Origin: Deltaproteobacteria bacterium
Lineage (GTDB): Bacteria > Bdellovibrionota_C > UBA2361 > SZUA-149 > JAITKM01
NCBI GenBank assembly: GCA_031278395.1
Contig: JAITKM010000007.1
Span: 139,805-203,804, forward strand
DNA: 64,000 bases
Reading direction: 5' to 3'
Of the stretch, positions 2,908-63,394 are shown piece by piece. A program made the position numbers and the translations under genes. Below the pieces are notes generated by a model. The model had not been told where the DNA came from. It searched no databases and saw only the letters and a list, made by a program, of their open reading frames with translations. Position 1 is the first letter of the stretch, and each line of letters starts with the position of its first letter.

Positions 2908-3353
2908 TTAGCCTCCATAAATAATATTTCTAAAATCTTTTGGGCTTAAATTAAAATTCAATTTAAGAAATCCGTAGCCCAAACAGGTATCCACCTATGT
3001 CTCCATAGCAACTTCGCTGCCATAGAAAACAGTGTCGCACTGCTTGCCAAAAATTAATAAAAAATACAATAGATTATTTTTAGATATAAAAAACAATAAT
3101 ATTAAGCGGTTAGAAATTTATTTATGATTATAATCAATCGTTATTGTATTAAGAAACTATTTAATTGATAAATTGTTTATTGCAAAAACATCTTGCCAAA
3201 CCCTAATTTTTTACCTATAGGCTACGCGCTTAGCATGCCGATCTATAAATATTAACTTGAAAAATTCCCTCAAAATAGAGAGAATTCACACTAATTCTCT
3301 CTACTTTGAGGGAATTTGCCTAGCCCCCACTAATTCGCAAAAAACAAATACAA

Positions 3354-23138: not shown

Positions 23139-24473
23139 TTATGAACTAACTGCAAGGTTACGAAGCTGGGACAATAACTTAGCGTTGTCGGAATGCCCGG
23201 TCTTGACAGCCCGGATACGACCCTGAAGTGGACGACCTAATAAAAAGAAATCTCCAATTAAATCCAAAATCTTATGACGCGCCAGCTCTTCTGAGAACCT
23301 TAACTCTGTATTAATTACCCCATCATTGCCAATCAAAATAAAATTATTCAAACGCCCACCAGCAGCTAACCCAGCTTTTTGCAAATACTCAACCTCTTTC
23401 ATAAAACCAAAAGTCCGAGCTGGAGCAATATTTTCTTTAAAAGCCTGCGGCGAATTTAAATTAAACTCAAAATACTGCTTGCCTATCGGCGCTGGATAAT
23501 TCAGTTCATAACTAATTGTTAAACCTGCTGTCTCGCAAGGCTCAATCATAATATACTCGTCTTCGGGCGATCGCCCTAGATCATCCTTATTTTTCGTGCG
23601 ATATTCAAACGGCTGATCAATCTTTATTTCATACCACTCTCCACCCTGCTCCTCTATGCCAATACTCTCCAAGGCTTTACAAATTTCTACGGCTGAACCA
23701 TCAAAAATTGGCACTTCGTCATTACACTTAATCAGTAGGTTAGTGATTTTATAGGCATGCAAAGTCGCCATTAAATGCTCAATTGTTGAAACAGAACTCC
23801 GCTCCGAAGTAATGGTTGTCGCAAAACTTGTCGAATTTACATAATCTATAAAAACTGGAATTGTCTTAGGTTCGCCTATTTTCGCAAAATGTAGACCAGA
23901 ATTTAAAGGCAACGGTTCCAGCACTAAGCCACTTTTTTGTCCTGAATGTAGACACTGTCCATACATAATCAGGCTTTTAGCCAGCGTGCGCTGTCCAAGA
24001 TTTTTGCCTTTTAAGCCAGTTGATAAAACTCCAACATTTTTTAACACATCAATATTTAAATCATTTCCACTAAAATTTTTATTAGTCTTAGTTAGCGCAC
24101 GGTTAACCGAGAGTAAAATGCTATCTATATTAAAAGGTTTTTCTATAATATCAAAAGCACCGCGCCGTGTTGCCTCTAACGCATTGGAAATAGTCGCATG
24201 CCCGGAAATCATAATGACTTCTGTATCCGGTGAGATTTTTTTTATACACTCTAAAGTTTTAATCCCATCCCAACCAGACATCCAAATATCAAGAAAAATT
24301 AGGTCTGGATGATATTGCTTAACTTTTTCTAATGCTTCTTGCCCACTATTAGCGGTAATTGTTGCGTAATGTTCGTCCTCCAGCACGTTACATAATGCTG
24401 AACAAATACTAGTTTCATCATCAACTACCATGATTAAAATTTGAGTATTAGCTTTTAACTTTAAATTAGACAT
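23139..24473 (-). CDS. lpxC: Fusion protein: N-terminal CheY-like receiver domain plus UDP-3-O-acyl-N-acetylglucosamine deacetylase (LpxC)
   Basis: Residues 10-125 form a REC domain (VVDDE, phospho-acceptor D in LIFLDIWM, S in MISGH, K in EKPF). The rest is full-length LpxC (QRTLAKSL..GLH, STIEHLMATL, ARTFGFMKEVEYL, HKILDLIGD, TGHSDNAKLL) with the zinc-ligand and catalytic His/Asp/Glu positions conserved. Confidence 0.85.
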   Translation of the reverse strand: MSNLKLKANTQILIMVVDDETSICSALCNVLEDEHYATITANSGQEALEKVKQYHPDLIFLDIWMSGWDGIKTLECIKKISPDTEVIMISGHATISNALEATRRGAFDIIEKPFNIDSILLSVNRALTKTNKNFSGNDLNIDVLKNVGVLSTGLKGKNLGQRTLAKSLIMYGQCLHSGQKSGLVLEPLPLNSGLHFAKIGEPKTIPVFIDYVNSTSFATTITSERSSVSTIEHLMATLHAYKITNLLIKCNDEVPIFDGSAVEICKALESIGIEEQGGEWYEIKIDQPFEYRTKNKDDLGRSPEDEYIMIEPCETAGLTISYELNYPAPIGKQYFEFNLNSPQAFKENIAPARTFGFMKEVEYLQKAGLAAGGRLNNFILIGNDGVINTELRFSEELARHKILDLIGDFFLLGRPLQGRIRAVKTGHSDNAKLLSQLRNLAVSS

Positions 24474-28286: not shown

Positions 28287-28350
28287 AGCTCTTGTTTTTC
28301 CTTTTCTCTTGAACAATCTCTAAATTTCTGCTTAAAGTCTGCCCGTTTCT

Positions 28351-28424
28351 GGCGATGTAGCTCAGGTGGCTAGAGCGCGGAACTCATAATTCCGAAGTCA
28401 GTGGTTCGAGTCCACTCATCGCCA
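28351..28424 (+). tRNA. tRNA with a CAU anticodon (elongator tRNA-Met, or tRNA-Ile2 if lysidinylated)
   Basis: 74-nt cloverleaf: acceptor ggcgatg/catcgcc, anticodon stem cggaa/ttccg, loop ctCATaa, T-loop ttcgagt. G1-C72 is paired, so this is not an initiator; CCA is not encoded. Confidence 0.85.
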
Positions 28425-28456
28425 TTTTTAAGATTACATATCAATTATATTATTCC

Positions 28457-55715: not shown

Positions 55716-57494
55716 TTATGATTTTTTTTCGCTAAGAGTTTGCGCTTGTTCTGGCAGCGGAGATTTTTTTAAACGAGAAACCCGTTGCTCCTTTTGACGA
55801 TTGAAACGCGTTTCTCGTCTATTGGTCTTTTTTTCTTTAACAGGGCTATGCGGGTTAGCAGGAGGCTTGCTTGCAGAAGTATCAGTTACCTCTGCGTTAC
55901 TATCAGCGGATTTAGTTTTTTTATACTTACTGTCGTTTTCTGGATGAACGTTAGTTTTTTTTACTCGTTCATGGCGTTGCTCTGTTTCCTCTGCCTTTTC
56001 TAAATCAATTTCTAATTCATATTGATCTGGTTTGATTCTGCCATCAGCTAAAATTAAAATTTGCACACCAGTTGATTTTTCCAAAGAACAAAGAATATCT
56101 TTTTTATTATTTAACAAAAATAAAGCTGGAGCATGTGGCATCCTAATCTTGACTGTGTTAATTCCGCCAGTCGAAACTGTCGATTGAATCTTGCGCAAAG
56201 CTTCCAGAGCCACGACTTCTGTATTTTTTATTTTACCCCGACCATCACAGTACGGACAATTAATGTGACTTTGACTAAGCAGGGAACTTTTTAAACGCTG
56301 CCGCGAAAGCTCCAACAAGCCAAATTTAGAAATTTTACCAACTTCAATTTTAGCTTTGTCGTTTTTAGTAACTTCTTTCATAATACGCTCAACAATTTGC
56401 TTGTGGCGTCGATTGAACATATCAATAAAGTCAATCACTACTAATCCGCCTAAGTCACGAAGTTTTAACTGTCTGGCAATTTCAGATGCAGCTTCTTTGT
56501 TTGTCGCAAAAGCTGTTTCTTCAACATCCGTCTGTCCAGTTGAGCGCCCAGAATTAACGTCAACTGCAACCACAGCTTCAGTTGGAGTAATTACAATTGA
56601 ACCGCCAGACGGTAATTGCACTTCAGGACGGCTAATCTCTTCAATCTGTTCGTCAATATTATATTTGCCAAATAGTGGCTGATTTTCTTTGTAGTGTTTG
56701 ATACGGTTTAAAAATTTAGGGGCAGTCTTAGACATAAAGTCAGATGCTTTATCAAAAGCCTCTTTATCGTCAATCAACACTTCGTCAATATCCGATGTTA
56801 AATAGTCGCGCAAAGCACGAATCGCGATGTCAGACTCTTTATAAAGCGGACAAGGACTTTTTTGTTCCATGCTTTTTTGAATAATCGAAACCCAGAGGTC
56901 CAGCAAATTATCAACGTCTTTTTGTAACTCAAGCGTGGACTTGTTAATACCAGCAGTGCGCACGATTACGCCCATACCCGATGGAATACGGAGTTTTTGC
57001 ACGGCTTGGCGAATCTGTCTGCGCTGCGAAGAGTCAGAAATTTTTCGAGAAACTCCGCCGCGCTGATTACCTATGATTAAAACGCAATATCTGCCCGGAA
57101 TAGATAAATTAGTAGTAAGCGTTGCGCCCTTAGTATCTCGTTCATCTTTGACCACCTGCACAATAAGCTCTTGTCCAGTTTTGAGAACATCTTGAACAAC
57201 AAAACGGCGATAATGCTGCCCCTGTTCAGCAGACTCAGAATTTCCATTAGAATGGACATTAAAATAAGCCGGGTGAATATCATTGGTTTGCAAAAAACCA
57301 TTTCTACTAGAACCAATATCTAAAAAAGCTGCCTGCAAACTCGGCTCAAGTCTGGTAATACTAGCTTTGTAAATGTTGCCTTTGAGTTGAACTTGGTCAG
57401 ACCAAACAATGTCTAAAGCAATGAGCTTTTCATCCTCAATGATAGCAACTCTTTTTTCTTCCGAATGAATAGTATTAATTAATAGCCTACGCAT
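55716..57494 (-). CDS. rng: Ribonuclease E/G family (Rng/CafA-like) with a basic C-terminal tail
   Basis: S1 domain at the N-terminus followed by the RNase E/G catalytic core; 592 aa. Confidence 0.85.
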   Translation of the reverse strand: MRRLLINTIHSEEKRVAIIEDEKLIALDIVWSDQVQLKGNIYKASITRLEPSLQAAFLDIGSSRNGFLQTNDIHPAYFNVHSNGNSESAEQGQHYRRFVVQDVLKTGQELIVQVVKDERDTKGATLTTNLSIPGRYCVLIIGNQRGGVSRKISDSSQRRQIRQAVQKLRIPSGMGVIVRTAGINKSTLELQKDVDNLLDLWVSIIQKSMEQKSPCPLYKESDIAIRALRDYLTSDIDEVLIDDKEAFDKASDFMSKTAPKFLNRIKHYKENQPLFGKYNIDEQIEEISRPEVQLPSGGSIVITPTEAVVAVDVNSGRSTGQTDVEETAFATNKEAASEIARQLKLRDLGGLVVIDFIDMFNRRHKQIVERIMKEVTKNDKAKIEVGKISKFGLLELSRQRLKSSLLSQSHINCPYCDGRGKIKNTEVVALEALRKIQSTVSTGGINTVKIRMPHAPALFLLNNKKDILCSLEKSTGVQILILADGRIKPDQYELEIDLEKAEETEQRHERVKKTNVHPENDSKYKKTKSADSNAEVTDTSASKPPANPHSPVKEKKTNRRETRFNRQKEQRVSRLKKSPLPEQAQTLSEKKS

Positions 57495-58233
57495 CGATTT
57501 ACCTATATTAAAATCAAATGCGACCCATTATATTTTAGATAAAGATTAAATTTTTATGAAAAAACATATAAAGATTACGCGAAGTTACACTCCTAGGGAT
57601 TGGTCATATAAGCAACCATCTATAGACAAACTTTTTCCCGAAATCATCCACACAAACCTTAGATAAGTTAAGTTAAATTAATACTTTTTATTTTAAAATC
57701 TTTATTTATTAAATTTATTAATGTGTCGCTAAATGTATATTTATAAAATTTACCACATTAGTTGTGCCTGCTCAGTAGTTTCTAAAATTATTCCAAACCA
57801 ACAAAGCAATAAAATATTTAAAAATCTGAATTTTTGACCTGCGGATTATACATAAAGAGCAGGTAACTTTCAATTGTTATTTTGTTTAGATGAAAAAATT
57901 AATATTTAGGTTTTATTAAAAAAATAATAGTTGTTTTAGATAGTTATAATTTAAAATTTATTTTCGTCCTTAAAGCTGCAAAAAAAAATGCTTTTCAATG
58001 AGCCTTGTTTTTTTTCCTACCTGCCTTGTGCCATATTGTAATTTTTTTAGTATTTAAGACAGAATCAATGATATTTTTTTATTTTTTAATTATATCAATA
58101 TGTTATTTGTAAATTCTTTTAAGGTTATTCTTAGCGCCGTTTTGTAATAATTCAAAATAAACACCTAAAATAATCAAAAAATTAACAAAAACGTGCAGGT
58201 ATGGTTTAAAAATGGTGGTAGTGGGGCTAAAAA

Positions 58234-60075
58234 TTAATCTTCTATTATTTTACCTGTCTGTCGTGACCACAATTTGTGATACTCGCCGCGTCTTATTATA
58301 AGTTCATTATGCGAACCTTCCTCAACGATTTTACCTTCTTTTAAGACAACAATCCTATCCAGTTCGCAGACCGTAGAAAGCCTGTGTGCAATGACTAAAG
58401 ACGTTCTGTCGTGCATTAAAGTCCGCAATGCATCCTGAATTAATTTCTCACTTTCAGAGTCAAGCGCAGACGTTGCCTCGTCAAGAACCAAAATTGGTGC
58501 GTTCTTTAAAATTGCTCGCGCAATAATTACACGCTGTCTCTGCCCGCCAGAAAGTTTTACACCGCGTTCGCCAGTAAGCGTGTCCAACCCGTGCGGTAAA
58601 TTTTCGATAAACTCCCAGGCATTTGCCAATTTTGCAGCAGTAATAATTTCTTTTTCACTTGCGTTTGGCTTGCCATAGCCAATATTTTGGCGCAGCGTGC
58701 GGTGAAACAACTCCGACTCCTGCGGCACGTAAGCAATATTTTCACGTAGACTATTTTGCGTAACATCGGAAATATTTTGTCCGTCAATTAAAATCATGCC
58801 ACTTGAAACATCTGCAAAGCGCAGTAGAAGTTTGGTCAGTGTTGTTTTTCCAGAACCAGACACGCCAACCAACCCCACGCGCTCGCCAGAGCGAATATGT
58901 AGGTTAAACCCCTTAAAAATCGCTCTTCTTGCACCGTTATGCTGAAATGTGATGTTGTTAAAATTTATTTCTCCCAAAAGACGCTTGCCTCCGTCCGCTG
59001 GTGCAATCGCTCGCGCGTGAGGTTTATCTACTACGTTATTTGGTGTGTCTAAAATTTTAACCATCTCATAAGCGTCGCCGAAATTTCTGTTTAATTCACG
59101 AAGAATATTATTTACGTTCCACAAGTTATCGATGATTTGCTGCCCATAGCTAATAATTAAAAGCATCGTGCCAACACTCAGCTCAAACTTAATGCCGCCA
59201 ACAATAACCGAGACAAGTAGCACGCCGTTAATCAAAACAGACACTGTGCTAAGTGCAATGTTACGCCCAATAAAAACCGACATTGTATTCATGCCAGAGT
59301 TAAACACCGAGCGGCTTACAGTGGCAAAAAGTTTTTTCTCGTAATTTTCGCGTCCGTGACTTTTTACAGACAAAACATTTGACACGCTATCTGCAAGTCG
59401 CCCGCTTTGGCGACTCCTGGTTTTTGCCCAAATTTCGTTTAAACGTGACGTTTTGCTGAAGAAAAAATAGGCTCCCAGTGAGTAAGTCGTAATCAAAGCA
59501 AACAAAATCATCGACACAACTGGCGCTTTTGTCCAGAGTAGCGCGCAAGCAAAAATGTTAATTGCAATTTGCGGCACAATCATAAAAATAAGATTGTCGT
59601 AGAAACGCTCAAACGCGCCAACAAATTTTGTCGTCTGACTAACCAGCGCGCCGCTAAATTTGTCGCTGTGAAAACGCATTGACTGCTTGATTAGAGTTTC
59701 AAAACATTTGCGTGCAAGATTGCGTTCTGTAATTAACTCAAACTTCCAAACAAAATATGTGCGCAGCCCGTTTAGGAGTGTAGTGTTTAAAATACCTGCA
59801 GCGACAATTAGCCCAATATAAGGTAACAGTTCCGAGATAAGCTCTTGTCGTGGGATTGTTTCTGTAGCAAGTTTGTCAACAACAATTGCCGCAACAAACG
59901 GCGTTAAAAATCTTCCGAGAAAAATTTGAATTGGCGCAAGCAGTATTGTAATGCAAAAGCCAAGTTTATTTTTGGCAACTTCCGCAAAATAGTAGTGTAA
60001 TACGCGTTTTATAACAGCGCGCCGCTTTTCTTTTCGTTTCTGAATTTTCTTTTTTAAGGTGGAATTTATTTTTTT
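58234..60075 (-). CDS. ABC exporter (MsbA-like; TMD-NBD fusion) whose TM1-TM2 region lies upstream of the first ATG
   Basis: NBD motifs GVSGSGKTT, LSGGQRQR, LVLDEATSALD. The ORF track opens at the ATG at 59679, but the same frame stays open to ~60081 and encodes two more TM helices (VLHYYFAEVAKNKLGFCITILLAPIQIFLG..., IGLIVAAGILNTTLLNGL) with no in-frame ATG/GTG/TTG. Confidence 0.75.
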   Translation of the reverse strand, partial: KKINSTLKKKIQKRKEKRRAVIKRVLHYYFAEVAKNKLGFCITILLAPIQIFLGRFLTPFVAAIVVDKLATETIPRQELISELLPYIGLIVAAGILNTTLLNGLRTYFVWKFELITERNLARKCFETLIKQSMRFHSDKFSGALVSQTTKFVGAFERFYDNLIFMIVPQIAINIFACALLWTKAPVVSMILFALITTYSLGAYFFFSKTSRLNEIWAKTRSRQSGRLADSVSNVLSVKSHGRENYEKKLFATVSRSVFNSGMNTMSVFIGRNIALSTVSVLINGVLLVSVIVGGIKFELSVGTMLLIISYGQQIIDNLWNVNNILRELNRNFGDAYEMVKILDTPNNVVDKPHARAIAPADGGKRLLGEINFNNITFQHNGARRAIFKGFNLHIRSGERVGLVGVSGSGKTTLTKLLLRFADVSSGMILIDGQNISDVTQNSLRENIAYVPQESELFHRTLRQNIGYGKPNASEKEIITAAKLANAWEFIENLPHGLDTLTGERGVKLSGGQRQRVIIARAILKNAPILVLDEATSALDSESEKLIQDALRTLMHDRTSLVIAHRLSTVCELDRIVVLKEGKIVEEGSHNELIIRRGEYHKLWSRQTGKIIED

Positions 60076-60264
60076 ATCTCCTTATTTTAGTTTTGTTTTA
60101 AAGCTTTCTGTCAGGCTAAAAATAATAATTAGTCACAATTCGCAATAAAAACGACGAATATTACTTCGCAATTTCTCAGCAAAATTACTAAAACATACCC
60201 TTTGAGGCAGTTTTAACACCTTCTGCGGTGTTATCCTGGATTTTGTGGATATTACACGTTGTGT

Positions 60265-60345
60265 TTAAATCAGCACGGAAAGTAAGACTACAACCATCAA
60301 GACCAACATTACACTGCCGATGATAAAGGCAGTTTTTTCAGTCAT
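60265..60345 (-). CDS. Possible 26-aa hydrophobic micropeptide (MTEKTAFIIGSVMLVLMVVVLLSVLI)
   Basis: ATG...TAA ORF encoding one TM helix, ~180 bp upstream of the ABC exporter; below the ORF-track cutoff. Confidence 0.2.
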   Translation of the reverse strand: MTEKTAFIIGSVMLVLMVVVLLSVLI

Positions 60346-60447
60346 TTTTCTTTGTTCTATTTCATGTGCTGAAACAGCGCTTACTTTATGGGAAAGACCA
60401 ATGCTTAAATTATTTCTAGTGTTCTCATTAATTGCCATAAAATTACT

Positions 60448-61644
60448 TTAAAAGAATAACAAAGTTATCAAAATAATAATTGCTACTGCTATTACTCCAC
60501 CACCAGCTAACAAAGCTGTTTCTTCTGATATAAAACTTTTTTCCATCTCACGTTTAGAAATAATATTTAATTTGTGAGACATGCCAGCTCCAAAACGTTC
60601 TTGCTCTCTGGCAAATTCTTTAGCGTTGTCATTGATTTGTTTTTCATCAAACACAAGCTCACTGCGGATAAATTTATTGACCTTACTAGCTGTTTCTCCA
60701 GTTGAATTTACTTTTACTTCTGATGTGTCTTGTAAAGTCTTAAACCTTTCTGAATCCTCATGAAAAGCCTTTACTGGATTGGTAGTTGTTGAACTATCAC
60801 CATTAACATCATTTTCGTCTAATCTTTTGCCGGTATAGTTCTCATAATCTTCGTCGCTAGTATTTTTGCTTTGTATTGGCGGAACGCTAAAAATGGCGGT
60901 AACAGAATTGATTCTACCAGATGAATCTGGCTGATCTAAATCGTAGTCTTGTGAGAAACAATGTTTTACACCATTGGCTGATAAAGGATGTGTCGTTCTA
61001 GTGTTCACAGAAGGTGAAACTATTGTGCGTTGAGAATTGACTAAAATTGTGAACTCATCAACTAATATTTCATCCATATCATTAAGATTAGCAAAATTAT
61101 TAATTTGTTGCCCGTTAACTAAAATTGGCACAAAAATTTGAAATAATTGAATGGAAAACACATCTTGCCTAAATTGAATAGAAAACTGTGTAACATGTGG
61201 GTCTTCTCCTTCAATTCTTATATTTTGAAACTCTCCGCCAGCGTAAAATACATCTTCTCTATGTTGCGGAATATATTCAGATAAAAAGCGGTCGCGATAG
61301 AAGATTAACAATGAATTTACACAATCTGCAGGTTTGCTTTCTAAGTAACTGACAGAAATATGAAAATTAGAAAGGCAAACAATGCTGTTATCTTTGATAA
61401 GTTTTAATTGCCCAGCTGGAGCTGGTTTATCATTGATAAAAGAACCGTTAGTGCTACCTAAATCACGAAAAACCCAATGACTACCTGCACAAATTAATTC
61501 TCCATGATTCCTAGAAACAGAACTGCTATCGACAATAATGGTATTATTTTGATGACGACCAATAGTGATAATACCATGGTCAACAGTGGCAATTTCAGTT
61601 GAACCACCTTCATAAACTGATTCTAATTTGATTGGCAAAGTCAT
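60448..61644 (-). CDS. FHA-domain protein with a C-terminal membrane anchor
   Basis: N-terminal FHA (ITIGRHQNNTIIVDSSSVSRNHGEL...FRDLGSTNGSFIN), a possible second degenerate FHA, and a C-terminal TM (LLAGGGVIAVAIIILITLLFF). Confidence 0.7.
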   Translation of the reverse strand: MTLPIKLESVYEGGSTEIATVDHGIITIGRHQNNTIIVDSSSVSRNHGELICAGSHWVFRDLGSTNGSFINDKPAPAGQLKLIKDNSIVCLSNFHISVSYLESKPADCVNSLLIFYRDRFLSEYIPQHREDVFYAGGEFQNIRIEGEDPHVTQFSIQFRQDVFSIQLFQIFVPILVNGQQINNFANLNDMDEILVDEFTILVNSQRTIVSPSVNTRTTHPLSANGVKHCFSQDYDLDQPDSSGRINSVTAIFSVPPIQSKNTSDEDYENYTGKRLDENDVNGDSSTTTNPVKAFHEDSERFKTLQDTSEVKVNSTGETASKVNKFIRSELVFDEKQINDNAKEFAREQERFGAGMSHKLNIISKREMEKSFISEETALLAGGGVIAVAIIILITLLFF

Positions 61645-61938: not shown

Positions 61939-62610
61939 TCAATGCAATGCCACAATTCTTGCGAATAAAAACCATAAGACAGAAAAGAATATTGCGCCCA
62001 GTATTAATGCAAAAATTGATTTAGGTTGTAATTTAGGTTCTGTTCCAGAGAATAGCCGTTTGATATTTTCAAGATGTCGAATCCAGATAAATAATGCGAA
62101 GACAGTCAGTAAATAAACTAGGAGCATATTATGTGTAAATATCCAGGCCCAGATAGGTGCGCTTAGTGAAGCAAACAAATTACTAAGGGAAGATATGCGC
62201 GTAATAGCAACAATCAAAATATATATACCTAATGCCGCTACAGAAATTTGTGGCTCGAATAAAAATATCGCGCCAAATGCCGTTGCTATTCCCTTACCGC
62301 CTTTAAATCTAAGATATGGAGAATAGCAATGCCCTAAAACGCCGGCGCCTGCGATAATCATTTTTTCAAAATCATCAACAAAGATAAAAGATGATATTGT
62401 CCAATACGCTATTAAAACTTTCAGTGCATCTAAAATTACACCAACGATTGCCAGTAGTTTTGATACACGAGAAAGATTTGCAGCCCCTGTATTTCCTGAC
62501 CCCACTTGGCGTAAGTCCTGATGTGCAAATACTTTTGCCAATATAAATCCAAATGGAATTGCGCCAATTAAAAATGAAATTAAAAATATTACGAAATATT
62601 CGACATTCAT
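61939..62610 (-). CDS. plsY: Glycerol-3-phosphate acyltransferase PlsY
   Basis: GSGNTGAAN motif. The ATG at 62610 (MNVEYFVIFL) sits 1 nt after the upstream gene's stop and is preferred over the ORF-track start at 62643. Confidence 0.85.
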   Translation of the reverse strand: MNVEYFVIFLISFLIGAIPFGFILAKVFAHQDLRQVGSGNTGAANLSRVSKLLAIVGVILDALKVLIAYWTISSFIFVDDFEKMIIAGAGVLGHCYSPYLRFKGGKGIATAFGAIFLFEPQISVAALGIYILIVAITRISSLSNLFASLSAPIWAWIFTHNMLLVYLLTVFALFIWIRHLENIKRLFSGTEPKLQPKSIFALILGAIFFSVLWFLFARIVALH

Positions 62611-62611
62611 T

Positions 62612-63394
62612 TTATTCTCCTTTAGCCGATGGTCGACGTTCAAATCTCAATGCAAGACGTGCCAGAAATGTTATGGGAACAATACGGGCGAGTAAGGCTT
62701 TGATTTTCCAACTATGACGCATTATTGCGATTTCTTTACCTTTATCTAATTCTCTTAAACAATGCTCTACGACTTCATTAGGGCTTGCGCCATGTGGAAC
62801 ATTTTTTCTAATGCCATTAGAAGCGATATTGCTGAATTCTGTATCAACCGGACCTGGACAAAGTGCAATTACGCGGATTTTCTTGGGAGATAATTCTGCT
62901 GCTAATCCTAATGAAAAATTTAATACAAACGCTTTTGAAGCGGCATATAAAGCAAACGCTCCCATTGGAGAAAAAGCAGCCAAACTGGCGACATTAATAA
63001 TCCTTGATCCTTCGGTGAGAAACGGCAATGCAGAATAGCAGGTAGTAACAACTGATTTAATATTTACATCAAGCATTTCAGAATAACGCTCAAGGGATTC
63101 ATCTCCAAATAAACCATAAATCCCAAAACCTGCATTGTTTATTAAAGTATCAATAACAGCATTTGGTTCAATAATTTTCTTTATAATATCTTTACCTTTT
63201 AGTCCTGAAATATCTGCAACGACTGGCACAACTTGCATTTTAGTTTTTGCAGATAACTCTTTAGTCAATGCTTCTAAGCGATCTGCTCTGCGAGCAATTA
63301 AAAACATTTTATCTGCATTACGTTTAATTAATCTGCGTGCAAATGATTCGCCAATTCCAGAACTTGCACCTGTAATAATAATAATGCGGCTCAT
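62612..63394 (-). CDS. Short-chain dehydrogenase/reductase
   Basis: TGASSGIG Rossmann motif and a YxxxK active site. Confidence 0.8.
   Translation of the reverse strand: MSRIIIITGASSGIGESFARRLIKRNADKMFLIARRADRLEALTKELSAKTKMQVVPVVADISGLKGKDIIKKIIEPNAVIDTLINNAGFGIYGLFGDESLERYSEMLDVNIKSVVTTCYSALPFLTEGSRIINVASLAAFSPMGAFALYAASKAFVLNFSLGLAAELSPKKIRVIALCPGPVDTEFSNIASNGIRKNVPHGASPNEVVEHCLRELDKGKEIAIMRHSWKIKALLARIVPITFLARLALRFERRPSAKGE

Follow-up and report, generated by a model that had tools for sequence, protein, structure and literature searches.

The start-less frame of an ABC exporter gene

Where does translation of an ABC exporter gene begin if the frame encoding its first two transmembrane helices is devoid of canonical start codons? 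This question is raised by a minus-strand gene in the stretch of DNA analysed here (64,000 nucleotides, referred to as the window). Its frame opens behind a TAA stop codon (60084-60082) and continues through 134 open sense codons before the first ATG (59679-59677) is reached. The initial annotation had described about 134 further open codons without ATG, GTG or TTG; codon-by-codon reading gave the same picture, with none of the three codons in this extension, and located the near-cognate codons that had been listed as the only candidates (ATA 60069, ATT 60045 and CTG 59943) where they had been reported. The peptide KKKIQKRKEKRR is found in the translation of this minus-strand extension.

When the 52 open stretches of 150 or more codons in the window were compared, such a long start-less lead proved to be specific to the ABC exporter gene and not a habit of the genome. 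All other real genes in the window possess a canonical start at most 35 codons from the upstream stop (the distance is 47 codons in one shadow ORF), and a genome-wide use of non-canonical starts was rejected for the window on these grounds. In the rest of the exporter gene, 31 of 481 codons (6.4%) are of the canonical type (ATG/GTG/TTG), and the naive probability of their absence from the first 130 codons is about 2e-4. Nevertheless, this depletion is treated here as chance and is not claimed as a signal of selection, because the same 126-codon stretch of the closest orthologue (P0002, see below) contains just two canonical-type codons, both TTG, and because the finding was selected for that very feature.

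The frame encodes a six-helix half-transporter

With residues counted from ATA 60069, the hydropathy profile reveals six hydrophobic segments, two in the extension and four after Met131. The Pfam profile ABC_membrane (PF00664) matches residues 52-313 with 66.3 bits (cutoff 28) and is covered over positions 14-271 of 274; note that the six-helix membrane domain is complete only if translation starts upstream of TM1. ABC_tran (PF00005) matches residues 386-534 with 112.4 bits. Both defining domains of the ABCB-type (type IV) half-transporter family thus pass their cutoffs, and the protein is a member of this family. Besides the nucleotide-binding motifs listed in Table 1, the Q-loop (YVPQE) is present as well, likewise in invariant alignment columns.

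Sav1866 (residues 12-576) can be aligned with residues 34-604 of the exporter, and NaAtm1 (residues 44-338) with residues 47-339. In the latter alignment, the SLRFH sequence that follows TM2 of NaAtm1 corresponds to SMRFH at residues 130-134, and therefore the product started at ATG 59679 would be devoid of TM1 and TM2, i.e., of two of the six helices. The initial annotation had assigned two transmembrane helices and a basic N-terminal tail to the extension and only four helices to the product of the first ATG; hydropathy, Pfam coverage and these alignments bear out both statements. From the known fold of type IV exporters it follows that such a four-helix product would be incapable of forming a working transporter. 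The designation "MsbA-like" holds at the level of the fold only, as the protein misses the NCBIfam cutoffs for equivalogs of MsbA, the lipid A flippase (382.8 bits versus 602 for TIGR02203; 312.9 versus 867 for NF008381).

Table 1. Position of the ABC exporter gene and its features in the window, with the start codons proposed here and in public annotations.
Feature	Position	Strand	Basis or comment
Shine-Dalgarno sequence TAAGGAG	60078..60084	-	First three bases are the in-frame stop codon TAA that closes the frame upstream
A-rich 8-nt spacer ATAAAAAA between Shine-Dalgarno sequence and start	60070..60077	-	Sequence
Proposed start codon ATA	60067..60069	-	At the position of the ATG of orthologue P0002
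Full-length ABC exporter coding sequence	58234..60069	-	611 codons from ATA plus stop codon TAA (58234-58236); translation, Pfam, alignment with 13 homologues
Basic cytoplasmic N-terminal tail TLKKKIQKRKEKRRAVIKR, residues 4-22	60004..60060	-	Conserved in orthologue P0002
TM1, residues 36-64	59878..59964	-	Hydropathy, Pfam profile coverage, Sav1866 and NaAtm1 alignments
ATT 59925, NCBI start (MDR2337332.1, 563 aa)	59923..59925	-	Inside TM1; no Shine-Dalgarno sequence (energy +1.4)
TM2, residues 81-108	59746..59829	-	Hydropathy, NaAtm1 alignment
ATG 59679 (Met131), JGI/Prodigal start (481 aa)	59677..59679	-	After TM2; no Shine-Dalgarno sequence (energy -0.4)
Intact motifs of the nucleotide-binding domain	58375..58866	-	Pfam and alignment
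Walker A, GVSGSGKTT	58840-58866	-	Invariant alignment columns
Signature, LSGGQ	58540-58554	-	Invariant alignment columns
Walker B, ILVLDE	58477-58494	-	Invariant alignment columns
H-loop, IAHRLS	58375-58392	-	Invariant alignment columns

The extension is conserved in homologues

The initial annotation had considered that orthologues might uniformly start at the methionine of MRFHSDKF, with the upstream hydrophobic frame not being conserved. In fact, the N-terminal extension with TM1 and TM2 is present in 13 of 13 aligned homologues (592-635 aa); the other database matches, apart from the 481-aa call of the gene itself, are full length as well (592-635 aa), and neither the aligned homologues nor these further full-length matches start at that methionine. 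The closest orthologue, P0002 (610 aa, locus L001), shares 69% identity with the exporter. Over the first 130 codons the amino-acid identity of the two proteins is 54%, with pN of 0.28 versus a saturated pS of 0.74, and this ratio indicates that the extension has been kept under purifying selection and has evolved as a coding sequence.

The named relatives belong mostly to Saccharibacteria, with the exception of P0002, which comes from another low-GC metagenome-assembled genome (MAG). In a database of about 15 billion proteins, nothing was found between 69% and 100% identity to the exporter, and scans of genome and metagenome contigs yielded no relative above 45% identity. No matches were obtained when only the 130 N-terminal residues served as the query, and looking up the 481-aa and 563-aa products as exact sequences gave no contig on record. 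Horizontal transfer of the gene was considered as well. Most of the named matches are saccharibacterial and the gene has a higher GC content (about 0.42) than the window as a whole (about 0.35), which would fit a transfer; however, other conserved genes of the window reach 0.40-0.43, and P0002 sits in a genome of similarly low GC content. This question is without bearing on the start codon.

An opposite case was noticed among the homologues. P0003 (635 aa; L132, positions 3001-3093) is called from a TTG located 30 codons upstream of the ATG that lines up with the N-termini of the family, and this gene call is probably over-extended, an error in the direction contrary to that made for the gene in the window.

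ATA 60069 as the candidate initiation site

Alignment of orthologue N-termini, the check that the initial annotation had proposed, places ATA 60069 at the start codon of P0002. The start of P0002, ATG-MSSLTLSKKIQKRK, aligns with I-NSTLKKKIQKRK of the window (ATA-INSTLKKKIQKRK); at the nucleotide level P0002 reads ATG-MSSLTLSKKIQKRKNERRAATKRILHYFF and the window ATA-INSTLKKKIQKRKEKRRAVIKRVLHYYF, and in the MAFFT alignment the isoleucine of ATA stands under the methionine, followed by a one-codon indel. Furthermore, this ATA is preceded by the Shine-Dalgarno (SD) sequence given in Table 1. Its predicted duplex energy, calculated for an assumed canonical 16S 3' end CACCUCCUUA, as the 16S rRNA gene of the organism lies outside the window, is -9.3 kcal/mol and shares third place among the 59 gene starts of the window. 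Out of the 11,244 near-cognate triplets that the two strands of the window contain, only 0.5% follow an equally strong SD at that distance. Real genes of the window show AAGGAG followed by 6-11 nt and ATG, and about two thirds of the window genes have no SD. P0002 itself has GGAGG as its SD, 5 nt before the start codon.

Initiation at another near-cognate codon of the extension (e.g., ATT 60045, ATA 60012 or ATT 59925), or at ATG 59679 with a truncated four-helix protein as a result, appears highly improbable. Such starts have been annotated, by NCBI at ATT 59925 and by JGI at ATG 59679, and as most genes of the window begin without an SD, SD-independent initiation does occur in this organism. 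However, the SD energies of the other candidates (ATT 60045, ATA 60012, ATT 59952, ATA 59946, CTG 59943, ATT 59925 and ATG 59679) range only from -1.9 to +1.4, and SD-independent and leaderless initiation was reported to depend on AUG (PMC5622118). Moreover, a start at ATT 59925 or CTG 59943 would fall inside TM1 and one at ATG 59679 after TM2, at the cost of helices that 13 of 13 homologues keep; indeed, all of these codons except ATT 60045 and ATA 60012 would cut into or remove conserved helices. From ATT 60045 a complete transporter could still be made, but this codon is 32 nt away from the SD.

Other sources of a start around the site were tried and rejected. An upstream extension, a frameshift or coupling to an upstream ORF can be dismissed, as stop codons interrupt each of the three frames upstream of 60084; no ORF with a start terminates close to 60084, and the end of the next gene is at a distance of 181 nt. 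A reassignment of ATA to methionine was rejected, since the eight other ATA codons of the gene align to I, L, V, F or K in homologues. In a tRNA with anticodon CAU (28350-28425) the 1:72 end is paired; it is therefore not an initiator tRNA and is uninformative with regard to initiation. The gene infC, sought as an example of the organism's own near-cognate start, is not present among the window ORFs checked. Furthermore, no Rfam match with E <= 1 was obtained for positions 57300-60500, and the start region folds with -6.6 kcal/mol (z = 0.33 versus shuffled sequences), and a regulatory RNA in the leader or flanks was rejected accordingly. Finally, the known target context of TadA is UACG in a tRNA-Arg-like loop; it is absent from AAAAAUAAAUUCC, and A-to-I editing of AUA to AUI was rejected as well.

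ATA 60069-60067 is thus the best placed candidate for the initiation site, or for the remains of one, because it aligns with the ATG of P0002, is preceded by the SD and no other source of a start is found. The initial annotation had offered initiation at a non-canonical codon, a point mutation in the start, or an unusual mechanism. The first two describe the same event from different sides and are supported, with ATA 60069 picked as the codon concerned; nothing speaks for the third, as no ORF or frame feeds the gene, no Rfam family matches and ATA is not reassigned.

As expected for a functional non-canonical start, the complete protein has no canonical alternative and a strong SD lies at a functional distance. 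Conservation of the non-canonical codon among orthologues is not observed, as P0002 (69% identity) and P0004 both start with ATG. There is, on this comparison, no evolutionary evidence for maintenance of the ATA, the sole orthologue close enough to be compared having ATG. Nor can the strong SD be read as compensation for a weak codon, because the ATG-starting P0002 also has a strong SD.

We note in addition that codons 3-5 (TCC ACC TTA) in the region 60040-60084 (minus strand) read UCCACCUUA, which resembles the anti-SD of 16S rRNA. In the minimum-free-energy fold these codons pair with AAGGA of the SD, possibly as a weak SD-sequestering hairpin around the AUA; the anti-SD-like sequence is absent from the orthologue, and the fold is no stabler than that of shuffled sequences (see the z value above).

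Origin and possible function of the ATA start

The gene probably encodes a normal six-helix ABC exporter half-transporter of the homodimer type (611 residues), functional but weakly translated from the ATA. The ATA is the derived state, because ATG is the start codon both of the orthologue and of homologues further away. The ancestral ATG would have become ATA in the line leading to this genome when its third base underwent one G-to-A transition, the commonest substitution in AT-rich genomes. The strong and well-spaced SD (TAAGGAG and 8 nt) would still set the 30S subunit over the ATA, where the initiator tRNA would pair with AUA despite a mismatch at the third position. The full-length protein would then be made with an N-terminal methionine, at a lower rate and subject to discrimination by IF3. 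Judging from the bacteria tested, this rate may be expected to lie between a few percent and a few tens of percent of that of AUG: initiation at AUA in E. coli amounts to 1-2% of AUG (bioRxiv 10.1101/063800), whereas the AUA starts of infC, ccpN and the lineage-specific citZ in S. aureus, which have extended SDs, reach about 10-30% (PMC13009471).

The same change could have produced a young pseudogene or null allele, if the recent loss of ATG effectively abolished the exporter and the ORF is intact merely for lack of time to decay. The derived nature of the ATA, the commonness of G-to-A mutations in AT-rich genomes and the low value for AUA in E. coli fit this explanation, and the consensus of a MAG could carry a deleterious variant of the population. 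We nevertheless regard it as unlikely. The gene, with ~42% GC in a window of ~35% GC, has 611 of 611 codons open, its remainder is intact with all ATPase motifs present, and the NCBI pipeline did not flag a pseudogene. In addition, an SD of this strength 8 nt before a near-cognate codon led to measurable initiation in every system tested, and "no protein" is for this reason less likely than "less protein".

If the true codon were ATG and the ATA an error of sequencing, assembly or consensus, the gene would be an ordinary one. The codon is indeed a single base away from a canonical start at the exact homologous position, it is embedded in an A tract rich in homopolymers (AAAAAAATAAA), and the source is a metagenome-assembled contig. 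Against this, the 481-aa call, which implies that no ATG is present upstream, is on record from JGI/IMG and from Logan, and the NCBI record of the same contig, which is 301,962 bp long, has no ATG there either, although all these sources may share reads. Moreover, the 611-aa version is absent among about 15 billion proteins, substitution errors are rare in assembled consensus sequences, and the other genes of the window look intact. An error is, in our opinion, distinctly unlikely.

It is also conceivable, but improbable, that the AUA is a selectively maintained attenuator, which would hold a potentially toxic exporter at a low, IF3-sensitive (and hence growth-state-dependent) level; in that case the absence of start codons over the next 130 codons would reflect selection against internal starts giving truncated, dominant-negative half-transporters.

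Consequences for annotation

Homology supports a protein of 611 aa, and the two public versions, with 481 aa (JGI) and 563 aa (NCBI), both appear to be too short. Both of these annotations strip transmembrane helices from the exporter, and gene callers that are limited to ATG, GTG and TTG, or equipped with ad hoc rescue rules, will keep shortening such genes. The right start can be recovered by a simple check, i.e., alignment of orthologue N-termini combined with a search for the SD, and the main value of the present case is this practical one. The NCBI protein MDR2337332.1 is labelled "Deltaproteobacteria bacterium"; if the ATA is used, the short list of natural AUA starts would gain an entry from an uncultured low-GC bacterium with this label. 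The phenomenon itself is ordinary and already known, and this instance is single and non-conserved and opens no new question.

Other features of the window

Just upstream of the exporter gene, a 57-aa ORF (60265-60438, minus strand) is a paralogue of the last ~60 residues of the adjoining FHA-domain protein (398 aa, 60448-61644, minus strand; BLASTP E = 2e-6, 31% identity). Both sequences contain G(L/M)SHK...E(I/M)E...E(K/E)TA followed by a C-terminal hydrophobic helix, as though a tail-anchor module had been duplicated in tandem. Downstream, the stop codon of the exporter gene is separated from the start of an RNase E/G gene by a very AT-rich, ORF-free spacer of 740 bp (57495-58233), for which no Rfam match was found. 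On its minus strand, this spacer contains a promoter-like site close to the consensus (57873-57845; TTGAAA, 17 nt, TATAAT; 11 of 12 matches). It would provide RNase E with a leader of ~350 nt, reminiscent of the autoregulatory 5' UTR of rne.

Two further genes may have been started too far upstream in the mechanical ORF list, which begins PlsY (61939-62643, minus strand) at TTG 62643 and a 333-aa ORF (13933-14934, plus strand) at TTG 13933. In both, AAGGAG is located 6-11 nt before an internal ATG (~62610 and ~14044, respectively), and these ATGs are the likelier true starts; for PlsY, the overlap with the SDR gene is thereby removed. A 444-aa fusion protein (23139-24473, minus strand) consists of a response-regulator receiver domain (residues 14-122) and a complete LpxC deacetylase (residues 161-437). 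This protein also shows that the organism makes lipid A, and through the fusion a phosphorelay would control the committed step in the synthesis of this lipid. Finally, a 498-aa protein (10868-12364, minus strand) matches Pfam RPA, the plasmid-type replication initiator protein A (E = 9e-20), and may mark an integrated element; its surroundings look otherwise chromosomal, with housekeeping and flagellar genes.

Comparison with known systems

As a protein, the exporter resembles Sav1866, MsbA and NaAtm1, homodimeric type IV (ABCB) exporters that combine a six-helix ABC_membrane domain with a C-terminal ABC ATPase carrying all motifs. With Sav1866 and NaAtm1 it can be aligned end to end, whereas from MsbA it differs in falling below the NCBIfam equivalog cutoff.

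With regard to the start codon, E. coli infC (as well as pcnB) starts with AUU and is discriminated by IF3, a case discussed in both bioRxiv 10.1101/063800 and PMC13009471. Similar to the exporter gene, infC has a near-cognate AUN start with lower initiation and sensitivity to IF3 (the latter two being predictions for the exporter gene). However, the infC codon belongs to an autoregulatory loop that is conserved, whereas the exporter gene bears no sign of a tie to IF3 or of selection on the codon.

The closest likeness as a start-codon case is the AUA of citZ in NCTC 8325-derived strains of S. aureus (PMC13009471). In citZ, infC and ccpN of this species, the AUA occupies the normal start position behind an extended SD with proper spacing, as in the exporter gene, and the full-length protein is produced at reduced yield, as proposed here for the exporter (PMC13009471). 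The AUA starts of S. aureus infC and ccpN are conserved across species, whereas the one orthologue that can be compared does not share the ATA of the exporter gene; in this respect the gene resembles citZ, in which ATG was changed to ATA in a derived, non-conserved manner (PMC13009471). Retapamulin ribosome profiling served to map the S. aureus sites, and their activity was measured with reporters (PMC13009471), whereas the start of the exporter gene is predicted from its sequence.
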